Positions 5,510 through 17,367 of a DNA stretch of 17,470 bases are shown here, one piece after another. How positions within the stretch are numbered: position 1 is the first letter of the stretch; every line of letters starts with the position of its first letter. Made by a program: the position numbers and the translations under genes. The notes under the pieces were generated by a model. The model was not told the DNA's origin. It did no database searches and worked only from the letters and a program-made list of their open reading frames with translations. The stretch lies in UHGV virus genome UHGV-0068970. One strand, given 5' to 3'. Source of the DNA: a virus.

Positions 5510-5576
5510 TGAAACAGGTGAGTTGAGTTCAAACTGTAGTACAATTCTCTCCAGTTTGAACAGGAAAGAATATGTT

Positions 5577-5909
5577 ATGAACCCTTATATTTATCTTGGT
5601 GGTGCAATACTTGCAGAGGTCATTGGTACAACCTTAATGAAGTTTTCAGAAGGTTTTACACGGTTATGGCCATCTGTTGGTACAATTATTTGTTATTGTG
5701 CATCATTCTGGTTATTAGCTCAGACGCTGGCTTATATTCCTACAGGGATTGCTTATGCTATCTGGTCAGGAGTCGGTATTGTCCTGATTAGCTTACTATC
5801 ATGGGGGTTTTTCGGCCAACGGCTGGACCTGCCAGCCGTTATAGGCATGATGTTGATTTGTGCTGGTGTGTTGGTTATTAATTTATTGTCACGAAGCACA
5901 CCACATTAA
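5577..5909 (+). CDS. emrE: EmrE small multidrug resistance (SMR) efflux transporter, 110 aa
   Basis: From the internal ATG at 5577: MNPYIYLGGAILAEVIGTTLMKFSEGFTRLWPSVGTIICYCASFWLLAQTLAYIPTGIAYAIWSGVGIVLISLLSWGFFGQRLDLPA..., recognisably E. coli EmrE (four TM helices, conserved Glu at position 14). emrE is a known DLP12 cargo gene. Confidence 0.9.
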   Translation: MNPYIYLGGAILAEVIGTTLMKFSEGFTRLWPSVGTIICYCASFWLLAQTLAYIPTGIAYAIWSGVGIVLISLLSWGFFGQRLDLPAVIGMMLICAGVLVINLLSRSTPH

Positions 5910-6153
5910 AAATAATTTCTTTTAAAAGACTGAAATATGGCGGTTCATATCTTTACATGGGCCGCTTTTGTTAATGTTTTTAGTTTTTGTGTATTCTTTT
6001 GTGCCTTCAAGATTATTGCGTAAGCAAATTGCAATACGATTATTGTTGTATATTCAAAAGAATGTGATCGTAATTGTCTTTTTAAATAAAAATTAAACAA
6101 AAATTATATCTCACCACTAAGGTTTATAAAAGCATACGTTAGCAGGTGTCACC

Positions 6154-7680
6154 ATGAAAAAAGCCATAGCATATATGCGATTTTCATCACCAGGTCAGAT
6201 GTCTGGCGACTCATTAAACCGACAGAGAAGACTTATTGCTGAATGGTTAAAGGTAAATAGTGATTATTATCTTGATACCATAACATATGAAGATTTAGGA
6301 TTAAGTGCATTCAAAGGAAAGCATGCACAATCAGGAGCTTTTTCGGAATTTTTAGATGCTATAGAGCATGGTTATATATTGCCAGGAACTACATTGCTAG
6401 TTGAAAGTCTGGACAGACTTTCAAGAGAAAAAGTCGGTGAAGCGATTGAGCGTCTGAAATTGATTTTGAATCACGGTATTGATGTTATAACTCTTTGCGA
6501 TAATACAGTCTATAATATTGACTCTTTGAATGATCCATATTCATTAATAAAAGCCATACTTATAGCACAAAGGGCAAATGAAGAAAGCGAGATAAAGTCA
6601 AGTCGGGTTAAATTATCATGGAAGAAAAAACGGCAGGATGCACTGGAGTCAGGCACGATTATGACGGCGTCTTGTCCGAGATGGCTCTCATTGGATGACA
6701 AAAGAACAGCTTTTATTCCAGACCCCGACAGGGTGAAAACGATTGAGCTAATTTTTAAACTCAGGATGGAAAGGCGATCATTGAATGCAATAGCCAAGTA
6801 TTTAAATGATCATGCTGTAAAAAATTTCTCAGGAAAAGAAAGTGCATGGGGGCCTTCTGTAATTGAAAAATTATTAGCGAATAAAGCTCTGATAGGTATA
6901 TGCGTACCTTCATATCGTGCAAGAGGTAAAGGAATAAGTGAAATCGCTGGCTATTATCCCAGAGTCATATCAGATGATTTGTTTTACGCTGTGCAGGAAA
7001 TTCGGTTGGCACCTTTTGGTATTAGCAATAGTAGCAAAAATCCTATGTTGATAAATCTACTTCGAACAGTTATGAAGTGCGAGGCTTGTGGTAATACCAT
7101 GATTGTTCAGGCGGTATCTGGAAGTTTGCATGGCTATTATGTTTGTCCGATGAGAAGACTGCATCGATGTGGCAGGCCATCAATAAAGAGAAATTTGGTT
7201 GATTATAATATCATTAATGAGTTGCTTTTTAATTGTAGTAAAATCCAACCAGTTGAAAACAAGAAAGATGCTAATGAAACTTTAGAGTTAAAAATTATTG
7301 AGCTCCATATGAAAATTAATAATTTAATTGCTGCATTATCTGTTGCGCCTGAAGTTACCGCTATAGCAGAAAAAATCAGAGTATTAGATAAGGAATTACG
7401 AAGGGCTTCTGTATCATTAAAAACTTTGAAGAGTAAAGCGGTGAGCTCACTTGGTGATTTTCATGCTATTGACTTAACCAGTAAAAATGGGCGAGAGCTA
7501 TGTCGTACACTTGCCTATAAAACATTCGAAAAAATCATAATCAATACAGATAATAAAACCTGTGATATCTATTTTATGAATGGCATTGTTTTTAAACACT
7601 ATCCTTTAATGAAAACAATATCCGCCCAGCAGGCGATAAGTACTCTCAAATATATGGTTGATGGTGAGGTTTATTTTTGA
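6154..7680 (+). CDS. ybcK: Large serine recombinase (resolvase catalytic domain + recombinase domain + zinc ribbon), YbcK-like, 508 aa
   Basis: N-terminal AIAYMRFSSPGQ...SLNRQ resolvase-type motif, central recombinase region, Cys cluster CEACGNTM...YYVCPMRRLHRCG, coiled-coil tail. Matches my recollection of DLP12 YbcK. AT-rich relative to the flanking phage genes. Confidence 0.85.
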   Translation: MKKAIAYMRFSSPGQMSGDSLNRQRRLIAEWLKVNSDYYLDTITYEDLGLSAFKGKHAQSGAFSEFLDAIEHGYILPGTTLLVESLDRLSREKVGEAIERLKLILNHGIDVITLCDNTVYNIDSLNDPYSLIKAILIAQRANEESEIKSSRVKLSWKKKRQDALESGTIMTASCPRWLSLDDKRTAFIPDPDRVKTIELIFKLRMERRSLNAIAKYLNDHAVKNFSGKESAWGPSVIEKLLANKALIGICVPSYRARGKGISEIAGYYPRVISDDLFYAVQEIRLAPFGISNSSKNPMLINLLRTVMKCEACGNTMIVQAVSGSLHGYYVCPMRRLHRCGRPSIKRNLVDYNIINELLFNCSKIQPVENKKDANETLELKIIELHMKINNLIAALSVAPEVTAIAEKIRVLDKELRRASVSLKTLKSKAVSSLGDFHAIDLTSKNGRELCRTLAYKTFEKIIINTDNKTCDIYFMNGIVFKHYPLMKTISAQQAISTLKYMVDGEVYF

Positions 7681-8289: not shown

Positions 8290-9072
8290 ATGGACAATAT
8301 TAATAAACACGGGCTCTCAAGAAGAATACCTGAGACAATAAAACGTCAGATAAGGCAAAGGTGCGGCTTTGGCTGTGTAATTTGTGGATTTGGATTTTAT
8401 GATTATGAGCATTTTAAACCTGACTTCGTTGATGCCAAAGTACATGATCCGAATGGAATGACACTTCTTTGCTCCCAATGCAATCAAAAAAGAGCTCGTG
8501 GTAGACTTTCAGCACAGACAGTGGAAATAGCTGACAGAAATCCCAAGTGCTTACAGGCTGGTTTTGCAAATGAAATGTTTGATTTTCATAATGAGCCTAT
8601 AACAGTAAAATTTGCAGGAGTGACGTTTCATAACTGTCAAAATTTGATTGTAGTCAATGAACAACCCATTCTTTCTGTGAAACCTTCACCCATACCACAT
8701 GGACCGATGCTTTTATCAGGAATTTTCTGTAATTCTATTGGTAAGGAGACTTTACTGATAGATGAAAATGAATGGAAAGCTAAATCAGACAATTGGGATG
8801 TGGAGTGTACCGGCCCGCGTATAACAATACGACGTGGGCCAGGAGAGTTTGCCCTCGTTCTAAAAATGGAACCTCCAACAGGATTGATTGTTGAGCGTCT
8901 TGATATGTTGTATGAAGGGGTCAGGATGAAAGGAGATAAAGATCTGCTGGAAGTTTCGATTAATGGAGGTCCCTTGCACAGATGGCAATCATGCTCAATG
9001 TCAAATTGCCATACAGGGCTTGCGATTCAGGGCGGTATTAGAGCTGCTAATGATCCTTTGTATTGCGCCTAA
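8290..9072 (+). CDS. HNH-nuclease-domain protein with uncharacterised ~190-aa C-terminal domain, 260 aa
   Basis: N-terminus RCGFGCVICG...YDYEHFKPDF...HDPNGMTLLCSQCNQKRARG fits the HNH/beta-beta-alpha-Me signature; compare the canonical HNH at 17017-17367. AT-rich ORF with a TGn extended -10 (TGGTAAAAT, about 8250-8262). C-terminal domain not recognised. Confidence 0.7.
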   Translation: MDNINKHGLSRRIPETIKRQIRQRCGFGCVICGFGFYDYEHFKPDFVDAKVHDPNGMTLLCSQCNQKRARGRLSAQTVEIADRNPKCLQAGFANEMFDFHNEPITVKFAGVTFHNCQNLIVVNEQPILSVKPSPIPHGPMLLSGIFCNSIGKETLLIDENEWKAKSDNWDVECTGPRITIRRGPGEFALVLKMEPPTGLIVERLDMLYEGVRMKGDKDLLEVSINGGPLHRWQSCSMSNCHTGLAIQGGIRAANDPLYCA

Positions 9073-10669: not shown

Positions 10670-10754
10670 AGTCAGAGATAACAATCAACTAATACTGTTT
10701 TGTTGATTTTTGCTTGTAATTGGCGTTCTGGTCTGAGTTTTGTGGAGTAAGTTG

Positions 10755-11132
10755 ATGCGTGATATTCAGATGGTTCTTGAGCGTTGGGGAGCGTGGGCGG
10801 CTAATAATCATGAAGATGTGACCTGGTCGTCCATTGCCGCCGGTTTTAAGGGATTAATTCCTTCAAAAGTAAAATCTCGCCCACAATGTTGTGACGATGA
10901 CGCGATGATCATTTGCGGGTGCATGGCCCGTCTGAAAAAGAACAACAGCGATTTGCATGATTTATTGGTGGACTATTATGTCGGCGGCATGACTTTTATG
11001 GCGCTTGCACGTAAGCATGGGCGATCTGATTGTTGGGTTGGCAGGATGCTTCAGAAAGCTGAGGGCGTAGTGGAGGGTATGCTGATGGTGTTGGATCTCC
11101 GATTGGAGATGGATGCTGATTGTTCGAAATAA
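10755..11132 (+). CDS. quuD: Late-gene antiterminator Q (QuuD-type), about 125 aa
   Basis: [33 protein letters not shown]...[18 protein letters not shown]... recognised as DLP12 QuuD. ATG at 10755 preceded by GGAG. The track ORF begins at an upstream TTG (10740). Confidence 0.85.
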
Positions 11133-11230
11133 TTAAAGGAAAAGTTGCTGTCTGATTGTCATTAGTCTAACATTTTAAATGTTGGAATCGCAACGTAGTT
11201 ATTATCATATAACAGCTTGTTTCCTGATTT

Positions 11231-11259
11231 AGCCAGCCTCCCCAAAGGCTGGTTTTTTT
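11231..11259 (+). terminator. tR'-like rho-independent terminator downstream of Q (target of Q antitermination)
   Basis: Hairpin CCAGCC-tccccaaa-GGCTGG followed by TTTTTTT (11253-11259), about 100 nt after the quuD stop. Confidence 0.6.
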
Positions 11260-11287
11260 CTAATAAGTATTATTTCGGGTAGGGATT

Positions 11288-11812
11288 TTATTGTTTAACC
11301 CATAATAATTCATTGACATTGAATCCCAACTTTTGAGCGGTTCGCACATAGTCTGCTTTTACTTTATCTGGAATAGTTGGGGTCCTTGCCAGAATCCATA
11401 GGTATTCTCTGTTCGGACCACTGACAAGAGCATACTTATACTCATCATCCAGTTTGATTACATTATAGCCACCATAGAAGGGGCCAAAAAACGAAACCTT
11501 CAATGCTGCAGTTTTAGTATCTCCAGTAAAGTATGCTTTACCTTCGCTCTCGCTCCATTTATTTTTCGTTGGATCGTATCCACGGTTAAGTACACGAATC
11601 CCTCCGTCGTTCCGTTTTCCATAAGTAGCGCTGACCTGTTCCAGACCACGTTCGAACCGGTTCTCGAGGCGAGCTATTTCATACCATTTTCCGAGGTAGC
11701 GGTTGGCGTCAAAATTTGTAATCGGCTGCACACCTTTAGGTGGTGTCGGGGCCTTACATGCTATAAGAGTGAAAGAGAGTGCAATGCCAGTCAACACAGG
11801 CCATAACTTCAT
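11288..11812 (-). CDS. blc: Blc-like outer-membrane lipocalin lipoprotein, 174 aa
   Basis: Signal peptide with lipobox (LIAC). NFDANRYLGKWYEIARLENRFERGLEQVSATY...KVSFFGPFYGGYNVIKLD...YLWILARTP closely parallels E. coli Blc. Encoded antisense to the late transcript. Confidence 0.8.
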   Translation of the reverse strand: MKLWPVLTGIALSFTLIACKAPTPPKGVQPITNFDANRYLGKWYEIARLENRFERGLEQVSATYGKRNDGGIRVLNRGYDPTKNKWSESEGKAYFTGDTKTAALKVSFFGPFYGGYNVIKLDDEYKYALVSGPNREYLWILARTPTIPDKVKADYVRTAQKLGFNVNELLWVKQ

Positions 11813-12004
11813 AATAAATCCTGTACTTTTGATAGTTGAGAGTAAGTATGAAAGATAGATGATTACGACCGATCACTTAAAGAACTTTCATACTATATTA
11901 GGAATAGTCCATAACAGAAAAATTGTCAGTGATGACGCCAGAAAGGCAATTTATTCCGTGCACTACACAGTTTATGTGTTAATGAATTAGTCAAGGGGGA
12001 GAAT

Positions 12005-12964
12005 ATGATAAAAAAACCTGTGATTGGAATCAGCGGTTGTTTGGCCGGTTCTGCTGTTCGTTTTGATGGTGGTCACAAAAGAGCTGACTTTTTAATGGAC
12101 AAATTAGTGGAATGGGTAACATTCAGACCAGTATGTCCGGAAATGGCTATAGGGCTGCCAGTTCCGCGTCCTGCTCTACGTCTTGTGCGCTCGATGCAAG
12201 GAAATATACGGATGTGTTTCAGCCACGACCAGAATGAGGATGTGACAGAGAGAATGACAGAGTTTAGTCGTTCTTATATGGACAAATTAAAGGATGTATC
12301 GGGGTTTGTGGTTTGTGCTAAATCTCCCAGCTGTGGCATGGAGCGCGTGCGTGTCTATGATGAAAATGGTAATCGAGGTCGTAAAGATGGAGTGGGACTA
12401 TTTACGAGCACTTTGATGGAAAAGTTTTCCTGGCTACCGGTTGAAGAGGATGGGCGATTACATGATCCAGTGCTTCGTGAGAATTTTGTTGAAAGAGTTT
12501 TTGCTTTGCATGAGCTCAATCACCTTTACAAGGAGAAATTATCAAGAAGAGAGTTATTAGCTTTTCATAGTCGTTATAAGCTTCAGTTGTTGGCGCATAG
12601 TCAGGCAGGCTATAAAGATATGGGACCATTTGTGGCTGCAATACACGAGTGGGCGGACCTTGAATCATACTTTGAGGTGTATCGTGATAAGCTGATGGCG
12701 ATTCTCAGAAAACCTGCATCACGTAAAAATCACACGAATGTGCTGATGCATATACAGGGGTATTTTAGTAACTACTTAAGTACACGCCAGCGTAAAGAGT
12801 TGAGCGAGGTTATACTTAACTATCGTTCTGGCACATTACCTCTTCTTGCGCCGTTGACTCTGCTGAAGCATTATCTGGGTGAGTATCCTAATGATTACTT
12901 GCTTACACAGAATTACTTCGATCCCTATCCGGACGAACTGGCTCTAAGACTGATGGTAAATTAA
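12005..12964 (+). CDS. DUF523 (TudS-like putative [4Fe-4S] thiouracil desulfidase) / DUF1722 (YbgA-like) fusion protein, 319 aa
   Basis: N-terminal half carries the DUF523 pattern GISGCLAGSAVRFDG ... PVCPEMAIGLPVPRP ... CAKSPSCGM with three conserved Cys. C-terminal about 170 aa is consistent with a YbgA-like DUF1722 domain. AGGGGGA RBS. Domain assignment from memory, not a search. Confidence 0.7.
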   Translation: MIKKPVIGISGCLAGSAVRFDGGHKRADFLMDKLVEWVTFRPVCPEMAIGLPVPRPALRLVRSMQGNIRMCFSHDQNEDVTERMTEFSRSYMDKLKDVSGFVVCAKSPSCGMERVRVYDENGNRGRKDGVGLFTSTLMEKFSWLPVEEDGRLHDPVLRENFVERVFALHELNHLYKEKLSRRELLAFHSRYKLQLLAHSQAGYKDMGPFVAAIHEWADLESYFEVYRDKLMAILRKPASRKNHTNVLMHIQGYFSNYLSTRQRKELSEVILNYRSGTLPLLAPLTLLKHYLGEYPNDYLLTQNYFDPYPDELALRLMVN

Positions 12965-13315
12965 TTGTATGCGATATCATCCAAAAGGATGAGTTCCTGC
13001 ATGCAGGATATTTACAATCGTAAAAACTACACTATGATACCCAGAGTGTCAGTTTGTATAAAAACTCTGTTTACGCTGAAGAAACAATTGAGATGCAACT
13101 TAAAGTTGGTAAACATGCCAGTCAAAATATATAATATTATGATTCCACGCAGCTATATATAATATAACAGATTGGTTTAATAATTTGTCTTTGTGAGTTA
13201 AATACATAATTTTATACTTGTGATGCAATGAAATTTTCCTTATTGTTGAACTGGCGAATATTGATTTTCCACCTATACTTACCTGGTGTAACCCCAATGA
13301 TATCAGGTGGATAAT

Positions 13316-14047
13316 ATGCCATACATATGTTCTATCATTTTGGTGTTGAACTCGTTTGATGTCCGAATTGGTAAAGAAGATATTTTGTTTAAAAAAGGAA
13401 GTGCTGTTCTCATTGATTACAATTTAAAAGATTTTTTTTCATCAAATATAGATCATGTAATGATCGTAGATGTTGAAGAGAAAACAGTTAATGATTTCTT
13501 TAAAAGCAACACACTCTCACCTTTTTCTGTAAGAAGGTTTTATCCGGCATACTTGATGGTGGAATGTGAAGATTTTTCATTGTTAAAGAACTTGATTGCA
13601 TGCTTGAATTGTGATGGCAGAACTGTGGATTTTGTTAGAAATCAAATATCACTTGCATGTCTTGCTATCTTATCTTCAGAGAAAATAGTGCAAAGTTTTT
13701 TATTTGGATGTCTTAATAGTTTAGGAAGTAAAGTTAAGGCTATTATTCACACGGATATATCTGCAGCATGGAGACTTTGTGATATATCTTCAAGACTGTA
13801 TCTGAGTGAAAGTCTGTTAAAAAGAAAATTAAAGCACGAAGGCTTATCATTTAGTAAGTTAATTCTTGAAGAGCGAATGGTGATGGCGGAAAGGTTATTA
13901 AGCTACAATTTATATTCTGTTGGAAAAGTTGCTGAGATATGCGGTTATGAAAACACGTCATATTTTGTAAGTGTTTTCAGAAGGTATTTTGGTGTTCCTC
14001 CCCATCAATATTCATCAAGATTTTTTTTAGAAAAAGACATGATGTAA
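13316..14047 (+). CDS. AraC/XylS-family transcriptional regulator, about 243 aa
   Basis: C-terminal AraC-type HTH signature (...ERMVMAERLLSYNLYSVGKVAEICGYENTSYFVSVFRRYFGVPPHQY). Very AT-rich gene and upstream region. ATG 13316 has an AGGTGG RBS; the track's 13307 start is an upstream GTG. Confidence 0.8.
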   Translation: MPYICSIILVLNSFDVRIGKEDILFKKGSAVLIDYNLKDFFSSNIDHVMIVDVEEKTVNDFFKSNTLSPFSVRRFYPAYLMVECEDFSLLKNLIACLNCDGRTVDFVRNQISLACLAILSSEKIVQSFLFGCLNSLGSKVKAIIHTDISAAWRLCDISSRLYLSESLLKRKLKHEGLSFSKLILEERMVMAERLLSYNLYSVGKVAEICGYENTSYFVSVFRRYFGVPPHQYSSRFFLEKDMM

Positions 14048-14234
14048 CGTGATGCGTTTTAATGATTTTGTAATTTTCGTATTTGATAATTGTATGATGC
14101 TTTCAGCTACGCCAGAATAATCGCGGCGTTTTTCTTTTTGAATAGATGTTCAAGCCTTACGCTAATGTAACTTCTATACCTTTCCTCTTCGTTCCGAACC
14201 GTGTACACCATCCGTTATTTGCGGAGGTGAGGCT

Positions 14235-14450
14235 ATGAAATCCATGGATAAGTTAACAACGGGTGTCGCCTATGGCACCTCAGCAGGTAGTGCCGGTTAC
14301 TGGTTTTTACAGCTGCTCGATAAAGTCACGCCCTCACAGTGGGCAGCAATAGGTGTGCTGGGTAGCCTGGTATTTGGCCTGCTGACGTACCTGACAAACC
14401 TTTATTTCAAGATTAAAGAAGATAAGCGCAAGGCTGCGAGAGGTGAATAA
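14235..14450 (+). CDS. essD: Class II holin (phage 21 S-type pinholin), dual-start motif, 71 aa
   Basis: [71 protein letters not shown], recognisably S21/EssD. Two TM segments. Met1 and Met4 dual start. Confidence 0.9.
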
Positions 14451-14947
14451 TGCCTCCATCATTACGAAAAGCCGTTGCTGCTGCTATTGGTGGCGGAGCA
14501 ATTGCTATAGCATCAGTGTTAATCACTGGCCCAAGTGGTAACGATGGTCTGGAAGGTGTCAGCTACATACCATACAAAGATATTGTTGGTGTATGGACTG
14601 TATGTCACGGGCATACAGGAAAAGACATCATGCTCGGTAAAACGTATACCAAAGCAGAATGCAAAACACTCTTGAATAAAGACCTTGCCACGGTCGCCAG
14701 ACAAATTAACCCGTACATCAAAGTCGATATACCGGAAACAACGCGCGGCGCTCTTTACTCGTTCGTCTACAACGTGGGTGCTGGCAATTTCAGAACATCG
14801 ACGCTTCTTCGCAAAATAAACCACGGTGATATCAAAGGCGCATGTGATCAGCTACGGCGCTGGACATACGCTGGCGGTAATCAATGGAAAGGACTGATGA
14901 CTCGCCGTGAGATTGAGCGTGAAGTCTGTTTGTGGGGGAAACAATGA
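14450..14947 (+). CDS. rrrD: SAR endolysin (T4-lysozyme-fold muramidase with N-terminal signal-anchor-release domain), 165 aa
   Basis: Gly/Ala-rich hydrophobic N-terminus ([20 protein letters not shown]) then a lysozyme catalytic region (E...D...T spacing), R21/RrrD-like. TAATG overlap with the holin stop. Confidence 0.9.
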
Positions 14948-15381
14948 GCAGAGTAACCGCGATTATCTCCGCTCTGGTTATCTGCATCATCGTCTGCCTG
15001 TCATGGGCGGTTAATCATTACCGTGATAACGCCATCGCCTACAAAGAACAGCGCGATAAAGCCACATCCACAATCGCTGACATGCAGAAGCGTCAACGTG
15101 ACGTAGCAGAACTCGATGCCAGATACACAAAGGAGCTTGCTGATGCTAACGCGACTATCGAAAGCCTCCGTGCTGATGTTTCTGCTGGTCGTAAGCGCCT
15201 GCAAGTCGCCGCCACCTGTGCAAAGTCAACGACCGGAGCCAGCGGCATGGGCGATGGAGAAAGCCCAGGACTTACAGCAGATGCTGAACTCAATTATTAC
15301 CGTCTCCGAAGTGGAATCGACAGGATAACCGCGCAGGTTAACTACCTGCAGGAGTACATCAGGACTCAGTGCCTGAAATAA
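14944..15381 (+). CDS. rzpD: Rz-type inner-membrane spanin (i-spanin), 145 aa
   Basis: From ATG 14944 (ATGA overlap with the endolysin stop): [26 protein letters not shown]... N-terminal TM segment followed by coiled-coil-like periplasmic region. Contains rzoD in the +1 frame. Confidence 0.85.
15143..15328 (+). CDS. rzoD: Rz1-type outer-membrane lipoprotein spanin (o-spanin), embedded in +1 frame of Rz, 61 aa
   Basis: AAGGAG RBS (15130-15135) then ATG 15143: [36 protein letters not shown]... Lipobox VSAC and Pro-rich mature region. Entirely inside rzpD. Confidence 0.7.
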
Positions 15382-15437: not shown

Positions 15438-15586
15438 TGTCCGCAGTAAACGCGCATTCTCGTGCGCATATCAACCAAGAGCTTTTCGGGATATGAGACA
15501 GAGACAGGACGGTGGCTTACATCGTGCCGCTCTTGGGCTGTCCATGTCTGCGAGAACTGGCTCATATCACCAAAAAGGTAAATACG

Positions 15587-16315
15587 ATGTCCAATATCAT
15601 CCCGATTGATTTCGAAGGCCATCCCATGCGTTTTTCTGACGATGGCTGGTTTGACGCGACTGCGGCAGCTGACAAGTTCAACAAGGAGCCGGCTCAGTGG
15701 CTTAGGCTTCCTGAGACTGTCCGTTACATCGAGGCGTTAAAGAGTAGATATGGGAATATCACATATGTAAAAACCAGCCGCGCTCGCAAAGATCGTGGTG
15801 GCGGAACATGGCTTCACCCAAAACTGGCGGTCAGATTTGCTCGATGGCTTTCTGTAGATTTTGAGATCTGGTGTGATGAGCAAATTGACGCAATCATTCA
15901 GGGTTCCGTTCATCATATCGACGATGAAAGAATAAAGGCTATTTTCCTTCTGGATAAATCTCAGCCATGGGAAAAGAGGTTTAGCGATCCGTTTTATTCT
16001 GCGATGTTCAAAATGTCAGGGCTGCCCCGTCATCGACCAGGTCGTCGCCCCGCACTATTTGGGATGATCAGTGCCAAGTGGGTATATGGCCCGGTATTAC
16101 CACCAGAAGTATATGCAGAGGTTAAAAGACGGCTGGCTACGGGAGACAAAATCCATCAGCACCTTAAACCTGACGCGCTGACATTGGTTGAGCGACAGAT
16201 CATTGCCGTTACCAGCATTGCCAATGGGTGCTCTGATTATCGTGATTTCGAAGCGCGTTGCATGTCGGCATTCCAGGTGAAAGGGCAGATGAAATTGCTC
16301 TATGCGGCGGCCTGA
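15587..16315 (+). CDS. KilA-N/Bro-N-like DNA-binding domain protein (antirepressor-like), about 242 aa
   Basis: From ATG 15587: MSNIIPIDFEGHPMRFSDDGWFDATAAADKFNKEPAQWLRLPETVRYIEAL... resembles KilA-N/Bro-N phage domains. C-terminal half unassigned. Start uncertain; the track ORF begins at 15512. Confidence 0.6.
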   Translation: MSNIIPIDFEGHPMRFSDDGWFDATAAADKFNKEPAQWLRLPETVRYIEALKSRYGNITYVKTSRARKDRGGGTWLHPKLAVRFARWLSVDFEIWCDEQIDAIIQGSVHHIDDERIKAIFLLDKSQPWEKRFSDPFYSAMFKMSGLPRHRPGRRPALFGMISAKWVYGPVLPPEVYAEVKRRLATGDKIHQHLKPDALTLVERQIIAVTSIANGCSDYRDFEARCMSAFQVKGQMKLLYAAA

Positions 16316-17016: not shown

Positions 17017-17367
17017 ATGCCACCTCGAACACCAAAAGCTTGCCGTGTTCGCGGCTGCCGTTCCACGACAACAGACCCATCAGGTTACTGTGAGTCGCAC
17101 AAAGGCGAAGGCTGGAAATCCTACAAATCAGGACAATCAAGGCATCAGCGCGGTTATGGTTCGAAGTGGGATGTTATCCGCGCACGTGTCCTGAAACGTG
17201 ACAAAGGCCTGTGTCAGTTATGTCTGCGTGCCGGTGTGGTGCGTGAAGCTAAAACCGTTGACCACATCATCCCTAAAGCGCATGGCGGCACCGATGCCGA
17301 CAGTAATCTGCAGAGTCTGTGCTGGCCCTGCCATAAGGCGAAGACGGCCCGTGAACGGTTAAAGTGA
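17017..17367 (+). CDS. HNH endonuclease (packaging-associated type), 116 aa
   Basis: Canonical HNH signature CQLC...VDHIIPKAHGG...NLQSLCWPCHKAKT. GGAG RBS. Sits just upstream of the expected terminase small-subunit gene. Confidence 0.85.
   Translation: MPPRTPKACRVRGCRSTTTDPSGYCESHKGEGWKSYKSGQSRHQRGYGSKWDVIRARVLKRDKGLCQLCLRAGVVREAKTVDHIIPKAHGGTDADSNLQSLCWPCHKAKTARERLK

Follow-up and report, generated by a model that had tools for sequence, protein, structure and literature searches.

The name RudS was given in 2024 to the fusion of an N-terminal TudS domain with a C-terminal DUF1722 domain (Jamontas et al., Nucleic Acids Res 52:10543, PMC11417400). The abstract of that paper describes RudS enzymes as carrying out the specific de-modification of 4-thiouridine (s4U) in tRNA, and one of its section headings states that tRNA desulfidation in vivo requires an active [4Fe-4S] cluster, which three conserved cysteines are predicted to form (Table 1, PMC11417400). 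All six RudS orthologues tested, RudS_vir among them, lowered tRNA s4U when overexpressed in E. coli; conversion of s4U in tRNA is known in vitro for RudS_KT of Pseudomonas putida (PP_0741) and in vivo, by overexpression, for RudS_vir (PMC11417400). RudS_vir is gp66 of Escherichia phage 1H12 (NC_049947, H3V29_gp66; cysteines Cys12, Cys44 and Cys110) and was the one member tested among ten viral RudS sequences noted in the study, all of them from siphoviruses (PMC11417400). Here, we examine rudS, a 960 nt gene (12005-12964, + strand) in a 17,470-nucleotide stretch of the virus genome UHGV-0068970, hereafter called the window. We consider it very probable that this open reading frame encodes a RudS-type tRNA s4U8 desulfidase, carried as a prophage accessory gene and likely lowering the s4U content of host tRNA.

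The window protein and RudS_vir have the same length (319 aa) and the same Cys12/Cys44/Cys110 set, and they are 93% identical (298/319) without gaps, leaving 21 amino-acid differences. The window gene is an allele of a named, experimentally examined phage gene and, in molecular terms, is already known. An initial annotation of the window had regarded such an enzyme as unexpected in a phage, a view that does not survive the prior listing of phage RudS genes and the testing of one of them (PMC11417400). Its suggestion of an action on thiolated tRNA nucleosides fared better and agrees with the RudS literature, in which the closely similar RudS_vir lowered tRNA s4U. A protein of phage IdasGreatGrand is 99.4% identical to the window protein, and the chromosomal RudS proteins of Citrobacter, Enterobacter, Klebsiella, Serratia, Pectobacterium and others are 70-76% identical to it. 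The chromosomal enzymes of Enterobacterales, such as RudS_ST (Salmonella STM1389/ORF319) and that of Enterobacter cloacae, likewise have 319 aa, two domains and the catalytic residues of the window protein; RudS_KT agrees with it in two-domain architecture and catalytic residues.

Both domains also occur on their own. TudS, a stand-alone DUF523 protein (PDB 6Z92-6Z96, 6ZW9), is a [4Fe-4S] desulfidase of thiouracil and 4-thiouridine monophosphate (s4UMP); it belongs to the same PF04463 family as the window protein and aligns with it at the first two cluster cysteines and the CPE motif. However, TudS has no DUF1722 domain and acts on free bases and nucleotides, and the similarity of 6Z92 to the window protein is low (phmmer, E 2.3e-4, residues 6-67 only). 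Conversely, E. coli YbgA (b0707, 169 aa) is a stand-alone DUF1722 protein without a TudS domain, and it behaved like the empty-vector control in a thiouracil growth assay (PMC11417400).

Domains and catalytic residues of the window protein

The rudS reading frame starts with an ATG, 5 nt downstream of a Shine-Dalgarno-like GGGGGAG (about 11994-12000), and its assignment draws on Pfam, NCBIfam, PHROGs and homologue identity. The same coordinates were called by the NCBI Prokaryotic Genome Annotation Pipeline (PGAP) in an identical E. coli chromosome segment (L001, 15306-16265), under the name 'YbgA family protein'. Residues 7-149 (12023-12451, +) form the TudS catalytic domain and match the Pfam profile PF04463 (2-thiour_desulf, formerly DUF523) from position 1 to 141 of 141 (137.4 bits, E 4.5e-40). 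Residues 192-309 (12578-12931, +) form the YbgA-like DUF1722 domain and match PF08349 from position 1 to 117 of 117 (139.9 bits, E 5.8e-41). Both scores far exceed the curated cut-offs, and the two domains that define RudS are fused in a single polypeptide; the TudS-like/DUF1722 fusion proposed in the initial annotation is thus borne out by profile search.

The names currently attached to this protein understate it. Residues 160-315 match PRK10167, the NCBIfam model for E. coli YbgA (190.8 bits, E 1.4e-56), but this score stays below the equivalog cut-off of 237 bits, and the window protein, at 319 aa, carries an extra catalytic domain. Because the score lies below the cut-off for a YbgA equivalog, the RefSeq name 'YbgA family protein' says too little. 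In PHROGs, the protein falls over its full length into phrog_3275 (E 8.9e-228), labelled 'unknown function', and this label, too, is behind current knowledge.

The three-cysteine pattern that had first drawn attention to the gene is present in the translation as S10-G11-C12, P42-V43-C44-P45-E46 and S107-P108-S109-C110-G111, and the positions of C12, C44 and C110 match those given for RudS_vir in Table 1 of PMC11417400. In a 26-sequence homologue alignment, C12, C44, E46, R55, K106, S107, S109, C110, E148, R151, H153, S239 and R240 are invariant. The catalytic glutamate, arginine and two serines of RudS_KT are E51, R60, S111 and S113, and mutants in any of these lost activity (PMC11417400). Their counterparts in the window protein would be E46, R55, S107 and S109, an equivalence that is positional, based on a fixed offset of -5, then -4, relative to the cluster cysteines rather than on a direct alignment. 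By the same offset, invariant residues of the window protein coincide with RudS_KT positions whose mutation cut or abolished activity.

A sequence search of the PDB, with the single sequence and with a profile, returned the TudS chain 6Z92_A as its sole match. The alignment spans only residues 6-67 or 6-58 and covers the equivalents of C12 and of C44-P-E46; because it stops before C110, this third cysteine is placed by the Pfam match and the motif. An AlphaFold2 model built on a shallow alignment of 25 sequences with identities of at least 70% is of low confidence, with a mean predicted local distance difference test score (pLDDT) of 58 and a predicted template modelling score (pTM) of 0.50; residues 1-42 and 103-108 are below pLDDT 50.

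By analogy with TudS and RudS_KT, from which the catalytic mechanism is carried over, C12, C44 and C110 would hold a [4Fe-4S] cluster, the free fourth iron of which would bind s4U through its thiocarbonyl sulfur. A water molecule would then be activated by E46, which R55, S107 and S109 would hold in position; s4U would be converted to uridine, and the sulfur would exit via the cluster. The DUF1722 domain of RudS binds the anticodon region of tRNA (PMC11417400). We propose that it docks the anticodon arm in the window protein as well, which would make tRNA, and not the free base, the preferred substrate. For the host cell, the likely outcome is less s4U in tRNA, which would mean less near-ultraviolet (ultraviolet A, UVA) crosslinking of tRNA, growth delay and stringent response; overexpression of RudS_KT is known to diminish the UVA-triggered growth delay of E. 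coli (PMC11417400). The phage gene would supply an activity that is absent from the E. coli core genome.

Position and spread of the rudS cassette

The window belongs to a lambdoid E. coli prophage. Its left half holds, besides the cIII thermoregulator RNA, a DUF2528 gene, sieB, N, a cI-type repressor gene, cro, cII, O and P; beyond the replication genes follow an emrE-like pump gene, a ybcK-like serine recombinase gene, ninB, ybcO, rusA and then Q. The antiterminator Q (10755-11132, +; PF06530 Phage_antitermQ, E 2.5e-51) has a listed reading frame that opens at a TTG at 10740, and PGAP sets the start at 10755 and names the product 'antiterminator Q family protein' in the chromosomal segment L001. 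Downstream of Q, a terminator scan and the predicted fold identify an intrinsic terminator (11231-11262, +) with a 9-bp stem, 5 GC pairs and a T-run, which is conserved in phage 1H12. Its fold has an energy of -14.9 kcal/mol (z -3.6), and none of 200 shuffled sequences was as stable. By position, this element corresponds to tR' of lambda, which RNA polymerase modified by Q has to read past.

Between Q with its terminator and the holin gene lies a three-gene accessory cassette comprising a lipocalin gene (-), rudS (+) and a gene for an AraC-like regulator (+). The lysis cassette that follows (14235-15381, +) consists of a P21-type holin (14235-14450; PF04971, E 2e-35), a lysozyme (14450-14947; PF00959, E 1e-44) and an Rz spanin (14932-15381; PF03245, E 1.4e-35), and the terminator scan returned no further terminator between 11231-11262 and the holin gene. 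Given the strong terminator after Q and the lack of another one before the holin, the three genes fill the accessory slot between Q/tR' and S. The late-region location claimed for rudS from the start is sound, with Q, holin, lysozyme and Rz surrounding it on the + strand. In related phages whose Q and holin flanks are the same, this slot holds a porin gene (nmpC/ompD-like), and in Stx phages it is occupied by stx. With its slot position, replaceable and dispensable, rudS ranks among the accessory genes ('morons') of lambdoid E. coli prophages.

Phage 1H12 has the same five-gene module of Q, lipocalin (-), rudS (+), AraC-like regulator (+) and holin, although its rudS-AraC spacer differs from that of the window by indels. 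The window copy sits in a DLP12-like prophage together with emrE and ybcK, whereas gp66 belongs to the 1H12 (Jouyvirus) genome. Within 5426 complete E. coli genomes, rudS was matched in 1136, with at least 80% of the gene present in 1064, and the matches group by identity into three bands of at least 99%, 95-99% and 90-95%. The whole Q-to-holin module is covered to at least 80% in 979 genomes of this set. It occurs in at least four prophage backgrounds (DLP12-like, Qin-like, att-lambda-remnant and others) and is also present in propagated phages; a full RudS is found in only 12 of 50,697 phage records, all of them E. coli lambdoid phages. E. coli has been said to lack RudS (PMC11417400 and a 2026 review in Microbiology and Molecular Biology Reviews, MMBR), which holds for K-12 but not for about a fifth of the sequenced complete genomes. 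With a prophage-borne rudS in so many strains, differences among them in tRNA s4U, UVA growth delay and stringent response may follow prophage content. Short contigs of a 'Candidatus Nanosynbacter' (Saccharibacteria) metagenome-assembled genome (L064, L069) also carry pieces of the module (Q, lipocalin, rudS, AraC-like regulator, holin) at 94-100% identity; these copies are almost certainly a binning contamination.

From the gene order, we infer that rudS is expressed together with the phage late genes. Following the lambda paradigm, Q-antiterminated late transcription would read through rudS after induction, and the gene may in addition have a promoter of its own in the lysogen. It is conceivable, though rather doubtful, that phage RudS serves the phage's own life cycle along with the UVA tolerance of the lysogen. 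UV light and the SOS response would trigger induction and, with rudS on the Q-dependent late transcript, s4U would be stripped from tRNA as the late proteins are made. Translation could thereby be kept running and the stringent response kept low in sunlit or UVA-exposed cells, allowing for a larger burst size. In the lysogen, rudS would constitute a UVA-tolerance trait of about a fifth of complete E. coli genomes. Elsewhere, rudS genes frequently lie within light-responsive operons, and that of E. cloacae has been proposed to be light-inducible because a MerR-family regulator adjoins it (PMC11417400). For the question whether temperate phages edit host tRNA modification in the lytic or lysogenic state, a concrete case is offered by an 'eraser' of tRNA modification that sits on a phage late operon without the usual MerR-type regulator. 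The remaining interest of the locus resides in the timing of rudS expression, the change of s4U in lysogens and during lytic growth, and the company of the lipocalin and the AraC-like regulator.

Substrate and benefit

Observations on RudS_vir and on the cassette itself weigh against the assignment of the window gene as an s4U-lowering tRNA desulfidase. Although its soluble protein levels were high, RudS_vir took less s4U from tRNA than other orthologues did; with protein levels comparable to those of RudS_ST, it appeared to have the weaker effect on tRNA s4U, and among the RudS enzymes it conferred the shortest lag on 4-thiouracil in a uracil auxotroph (PMC11417400). The weaker removal of s4U, taken together with the short lag, suggests that the substrate preference of the viral enzyme may be shifted. 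With regard to expression, the lone promoter-like match upstream of rudS is weak (11836-11863, +; TTGAGA-16-GATGAT, 9/12). The cassette is AT-rich, with 32-44% GC compared to 47-48% in the neighbouring Q, holin and lysozyme genes, and AT-rich DNA of this kind is often silenced by H-NS in E. coli. Finally, insertion sequence (IS) insertions or gene fragments in some genomes indicate that the cassette is dispensable.

The properties of RudS_vir could be read as signs of a TudS-like salvage function, in which free 4-thiouracil, 4-thiouridine or s4UMP, for example from tRNA turnover during infection, is recycled into the uracil pool while intact tRNA keeps its modification. The catalytic domain is genuinely of the TudS type, and stand-alone TudS is described as recycling s4UMP (PMC10611767). 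However, no RudS variant, the viral one included, supported growth as TudS did, and RudS_vir did lower tRNA s4U (PMC11417400); the tRNA-binding DUF1722 domain of the window protein is, moreover, intact and under purifying selection. The authors of the RudS study concluded that thiouracils are not the primary substrate of any RudS (PMC11417400), and thiouracil desulfidation, which the initial annotation cites for the DUF523 family, is not supported as the main activity here. We judge salvage to be unlikely as the main role.

General desulfidase chemistry alone would also allow for another sulfur-modified nucleic acid as the target, such as phosphorothioate DNA or 2-thiouridine (s2U) or 2-thiocytidine (s2C) in tRNA, for instance as an anti-defence function. 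None of the cassette proteins matched a PADLOC defence model, and the TudS active site (structures 6Z92-6Z96) binds a pyrimidine base by its thiocarbonyl rather than a phosphorothioate in the backbone. In addition, RudS is described in the abstract of PMC11417400 as specific for s4U in tRNA, and no RudS variant supported growth on 2-thiouracil (PMC11417400). Sulfur-modified nucleic acids had been named as a candidate substrate at the outset; nothing points to sulfur-modified DNA, and we consider any such target highly improbable.

The makeup of the cassette raises a different question, namely whether rudS does anything for its carrier. The lipocalin-rudS pair might be passive cargo from an enterobacterial chromosome, without benefit to phage or host and either silent or decaying. 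Its slot is swappable, as the porin gene of related phages illustrates; IS-disrupted, split and truncated copies of the rudS cassette exist, with BL21 keeping only the first 147 nt of rudS; and the base composition described above is joined by the absence of the MerR-type regulator found with chromosomal copies. Sequence divergence, however, argues for function. Between the window and 1H12 alleles, the ratio of nonsynonymous to synonymous substitutions (dN/dS) is 0.11 for rudS (dS 0.29) and 0.06 for the lipocalin gene, at dS values in the range of 0.2-0.3, and these low ratios indicate that both genes are maintained by purifying selection. All catalytic residues are retained, and the gene is present to at least 80% in 1064 of the 5426 complete E. 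coli genomes. Moreover, the neighbouring lipocalin (WP_000780581) is described as having been detected by proteomics in a clinical strain, with a 2-3-fold increase under meropenem (PMC13459554). Mere carriage without benefit therefore appears improbable, and all three alternatives are weaker than the reading of rudS as a RudS gene.

Chromosomal counterparts and neighbouring genes

To place the cassette among its chromosomal counterparts, we scanned a collection in which each bacterial species is represented by one genome; this yielded 64 loci encoding a RudS relative. Upstream of rudS, on the opposite strand, 42 of the 64 encode a lipocalin that shares about 80% identity with that of the phage. 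The commonest order, seen in Enterobacter, Leclercia, Lelliottia and relatives, is lipocalin (-), MerR/MlrA-type regulator (+), transthyretin-like gene (+) and rudS (+); 40 of the loci have the regulator and 37 the transthyretin-like gene, and the phage cassette has neither. Another 15 of the 64, including Citrobacter braakii, have rudS as the last gene of an operon with SnoaL, SDR, amine-oxidase, DUF1365, cyclopropane-fatty-acid (CFA) synthase, DUF2878 and DUF3833 genes. Neither of these chromosomal settings, with regulator and transthyretin-like gene or with the SDR-type operon, was found around the phage copy, which is instead flanked by Q/tR' and lysis genes, has an AraC-like neighbour and differs in GC content (43% compared to 54.5%). 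Citrobacter sedlakii and a second Citrobacter share with the phage a lipocalin gene and rudS that diverge directly from one another.

Overall, the phage cassette looks like a captured lipocalin-rudS pair without the MerR-type regulator, with the AraC-like gene acquired or already adjoining. If the regulator was dropped on capture, control of rudS would pass to phage late transcription, to the AraC-like regulator, or to both. The lipocalin-rudS intergenic regions of Citrobacter sedlakii and Citrobacter sp. JGM124 gave no meaningful alignment with that of the phage, and for this reason no direct chromosomal donor is identified.

Citrobacter braakii ATCC 51113 has two rudS copies on separate contigs (L012, L013), one in the CFA-synthase/DUF3833 operon and one elsewhere. 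Two genes upstream of C. braakii rudS, one for a 175-aa protein and the DUF3833 gene, were considered as counterparts of the phage lipocalin gene and rejected for lack of similarity; the 175-aa protein is weakly chalcone-isomerase-like. In Salmonella, a prophage-remnant copy of serovar Derby (P0030) encodes a protein 74% identical to the window protein. The Salmonella enterica rudS of loci L006-L008, at 74% identity, adjoins ttcA and has integrase fragments and a DUF1367 phage gene as neighbours. Besides the lambdoid prophages, this setting is a second, independent prophage-remnant context for RudS, and its adjacency to ttcA, the gene for tRNA 2-thiocytidine synthase, probably reflects a prophage attachment site rather than function.

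The lipocalin gene (11288-11812, -), which diverges from rudS, encodes a Blc-like outer-membrane lipocalin (Lipocalin_2, E 7.2e-44) that scores 316 bits against the NCBIfam Blc subfamily, above the cut-off of 267, and is only 60% identical to K-12 Blc. On the other side of rudS lies the gene for an AraC/XylS-family regulator (13316-14047, +; HTH_18, E 1.1e-14; HTH_AraC, E 2.1e-11), which is YdeO/GadX-like and has YdeO as its best NCBIfam match, below the cut-off. This gene has a GC content of 32%, compared to 43-44% for rudS and the lipocalin gene. The regulator is 54% identical to ECs_0287 of the O157 Sakai prophage Sp1, which from its location we take to be the PatE counterpart, the name being unconfirmed. 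It may control host acid-resistance genes, as PatE and PsrB do, or the cassette itself. A literature search for a link between YbgA, lipocalin and prophage found no paper.

Several candidate regulatory signals lie in and around the cassette. The divergent lipocalin-rudS intergenic region (11813-12004) is, from its sequence, a candidate site of cassette promoters and shows high conservation when the window allele is compared with that of phage 1H12. The best sigma-70-type match of the region, a promoter-like TTTACA-16-TATGAT (13011-13038, +; 10/12), lies ahead of the AraC-like gene and forms a conserved block within a spacer that is otherwise rich in indels among four alleles. Directly after the rudS stop codon, a hairpin (12965-13006, +) has a segment fold of -21.4 kcal/mol (z -3.9) and no U-run; its sequence is not conserved in 1H12, and it could be a transcript-stabilising structure or due to chance. 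For a pR' equivalent, the promoter scan gave no convincing sigma-70 match between the Q stop codon and the terminator, and candidates picked by eye, such as a weak TTGCTG-17-TAACAT at 11145-11173, were discarded as not conserved in 1H12. A terminator likewise picked by eye at about 14110-14140, after the AraC-like gene, was dropped, with a fold no better than that of shuffled sequences (z -0.11).

Elsewhere in the window, the cIII thermoregulator element corresponds to a full-length match to the Rfam model Lambda_thermo (345-403, -; 88.5 bits), and a scan of the window returned no other Rfam feature and no tRNA gene. A further accessory-gene insertion (5523-7680) separates the replication genes from the nin region. 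It consists of an emrE/QacE-like small multidrug-resistance pump gene (5523-5909, +) and a gene for a 508-aa large serine recombinase with Resolvase, Recombinase and zinc-ribbon domains (6154-7680, +), a placement like that in the K-12 DLP12 prophage. The gene at 8290-9072 (+) encodes a 260-aa protein of PHROG 6544 (unknown function) with no Pfam or NCBIfam match and a marginal HNH-like N-terminal hit. After Rz, where phage 1H12 has a bor-like gene, the window encodes a KilA-N/P63C-domain protein (15512-16315, +). At its right end lies an HNH endonuclease gene (17017-17367, +), and such genes usually take the position just ahead of the terminase genes.

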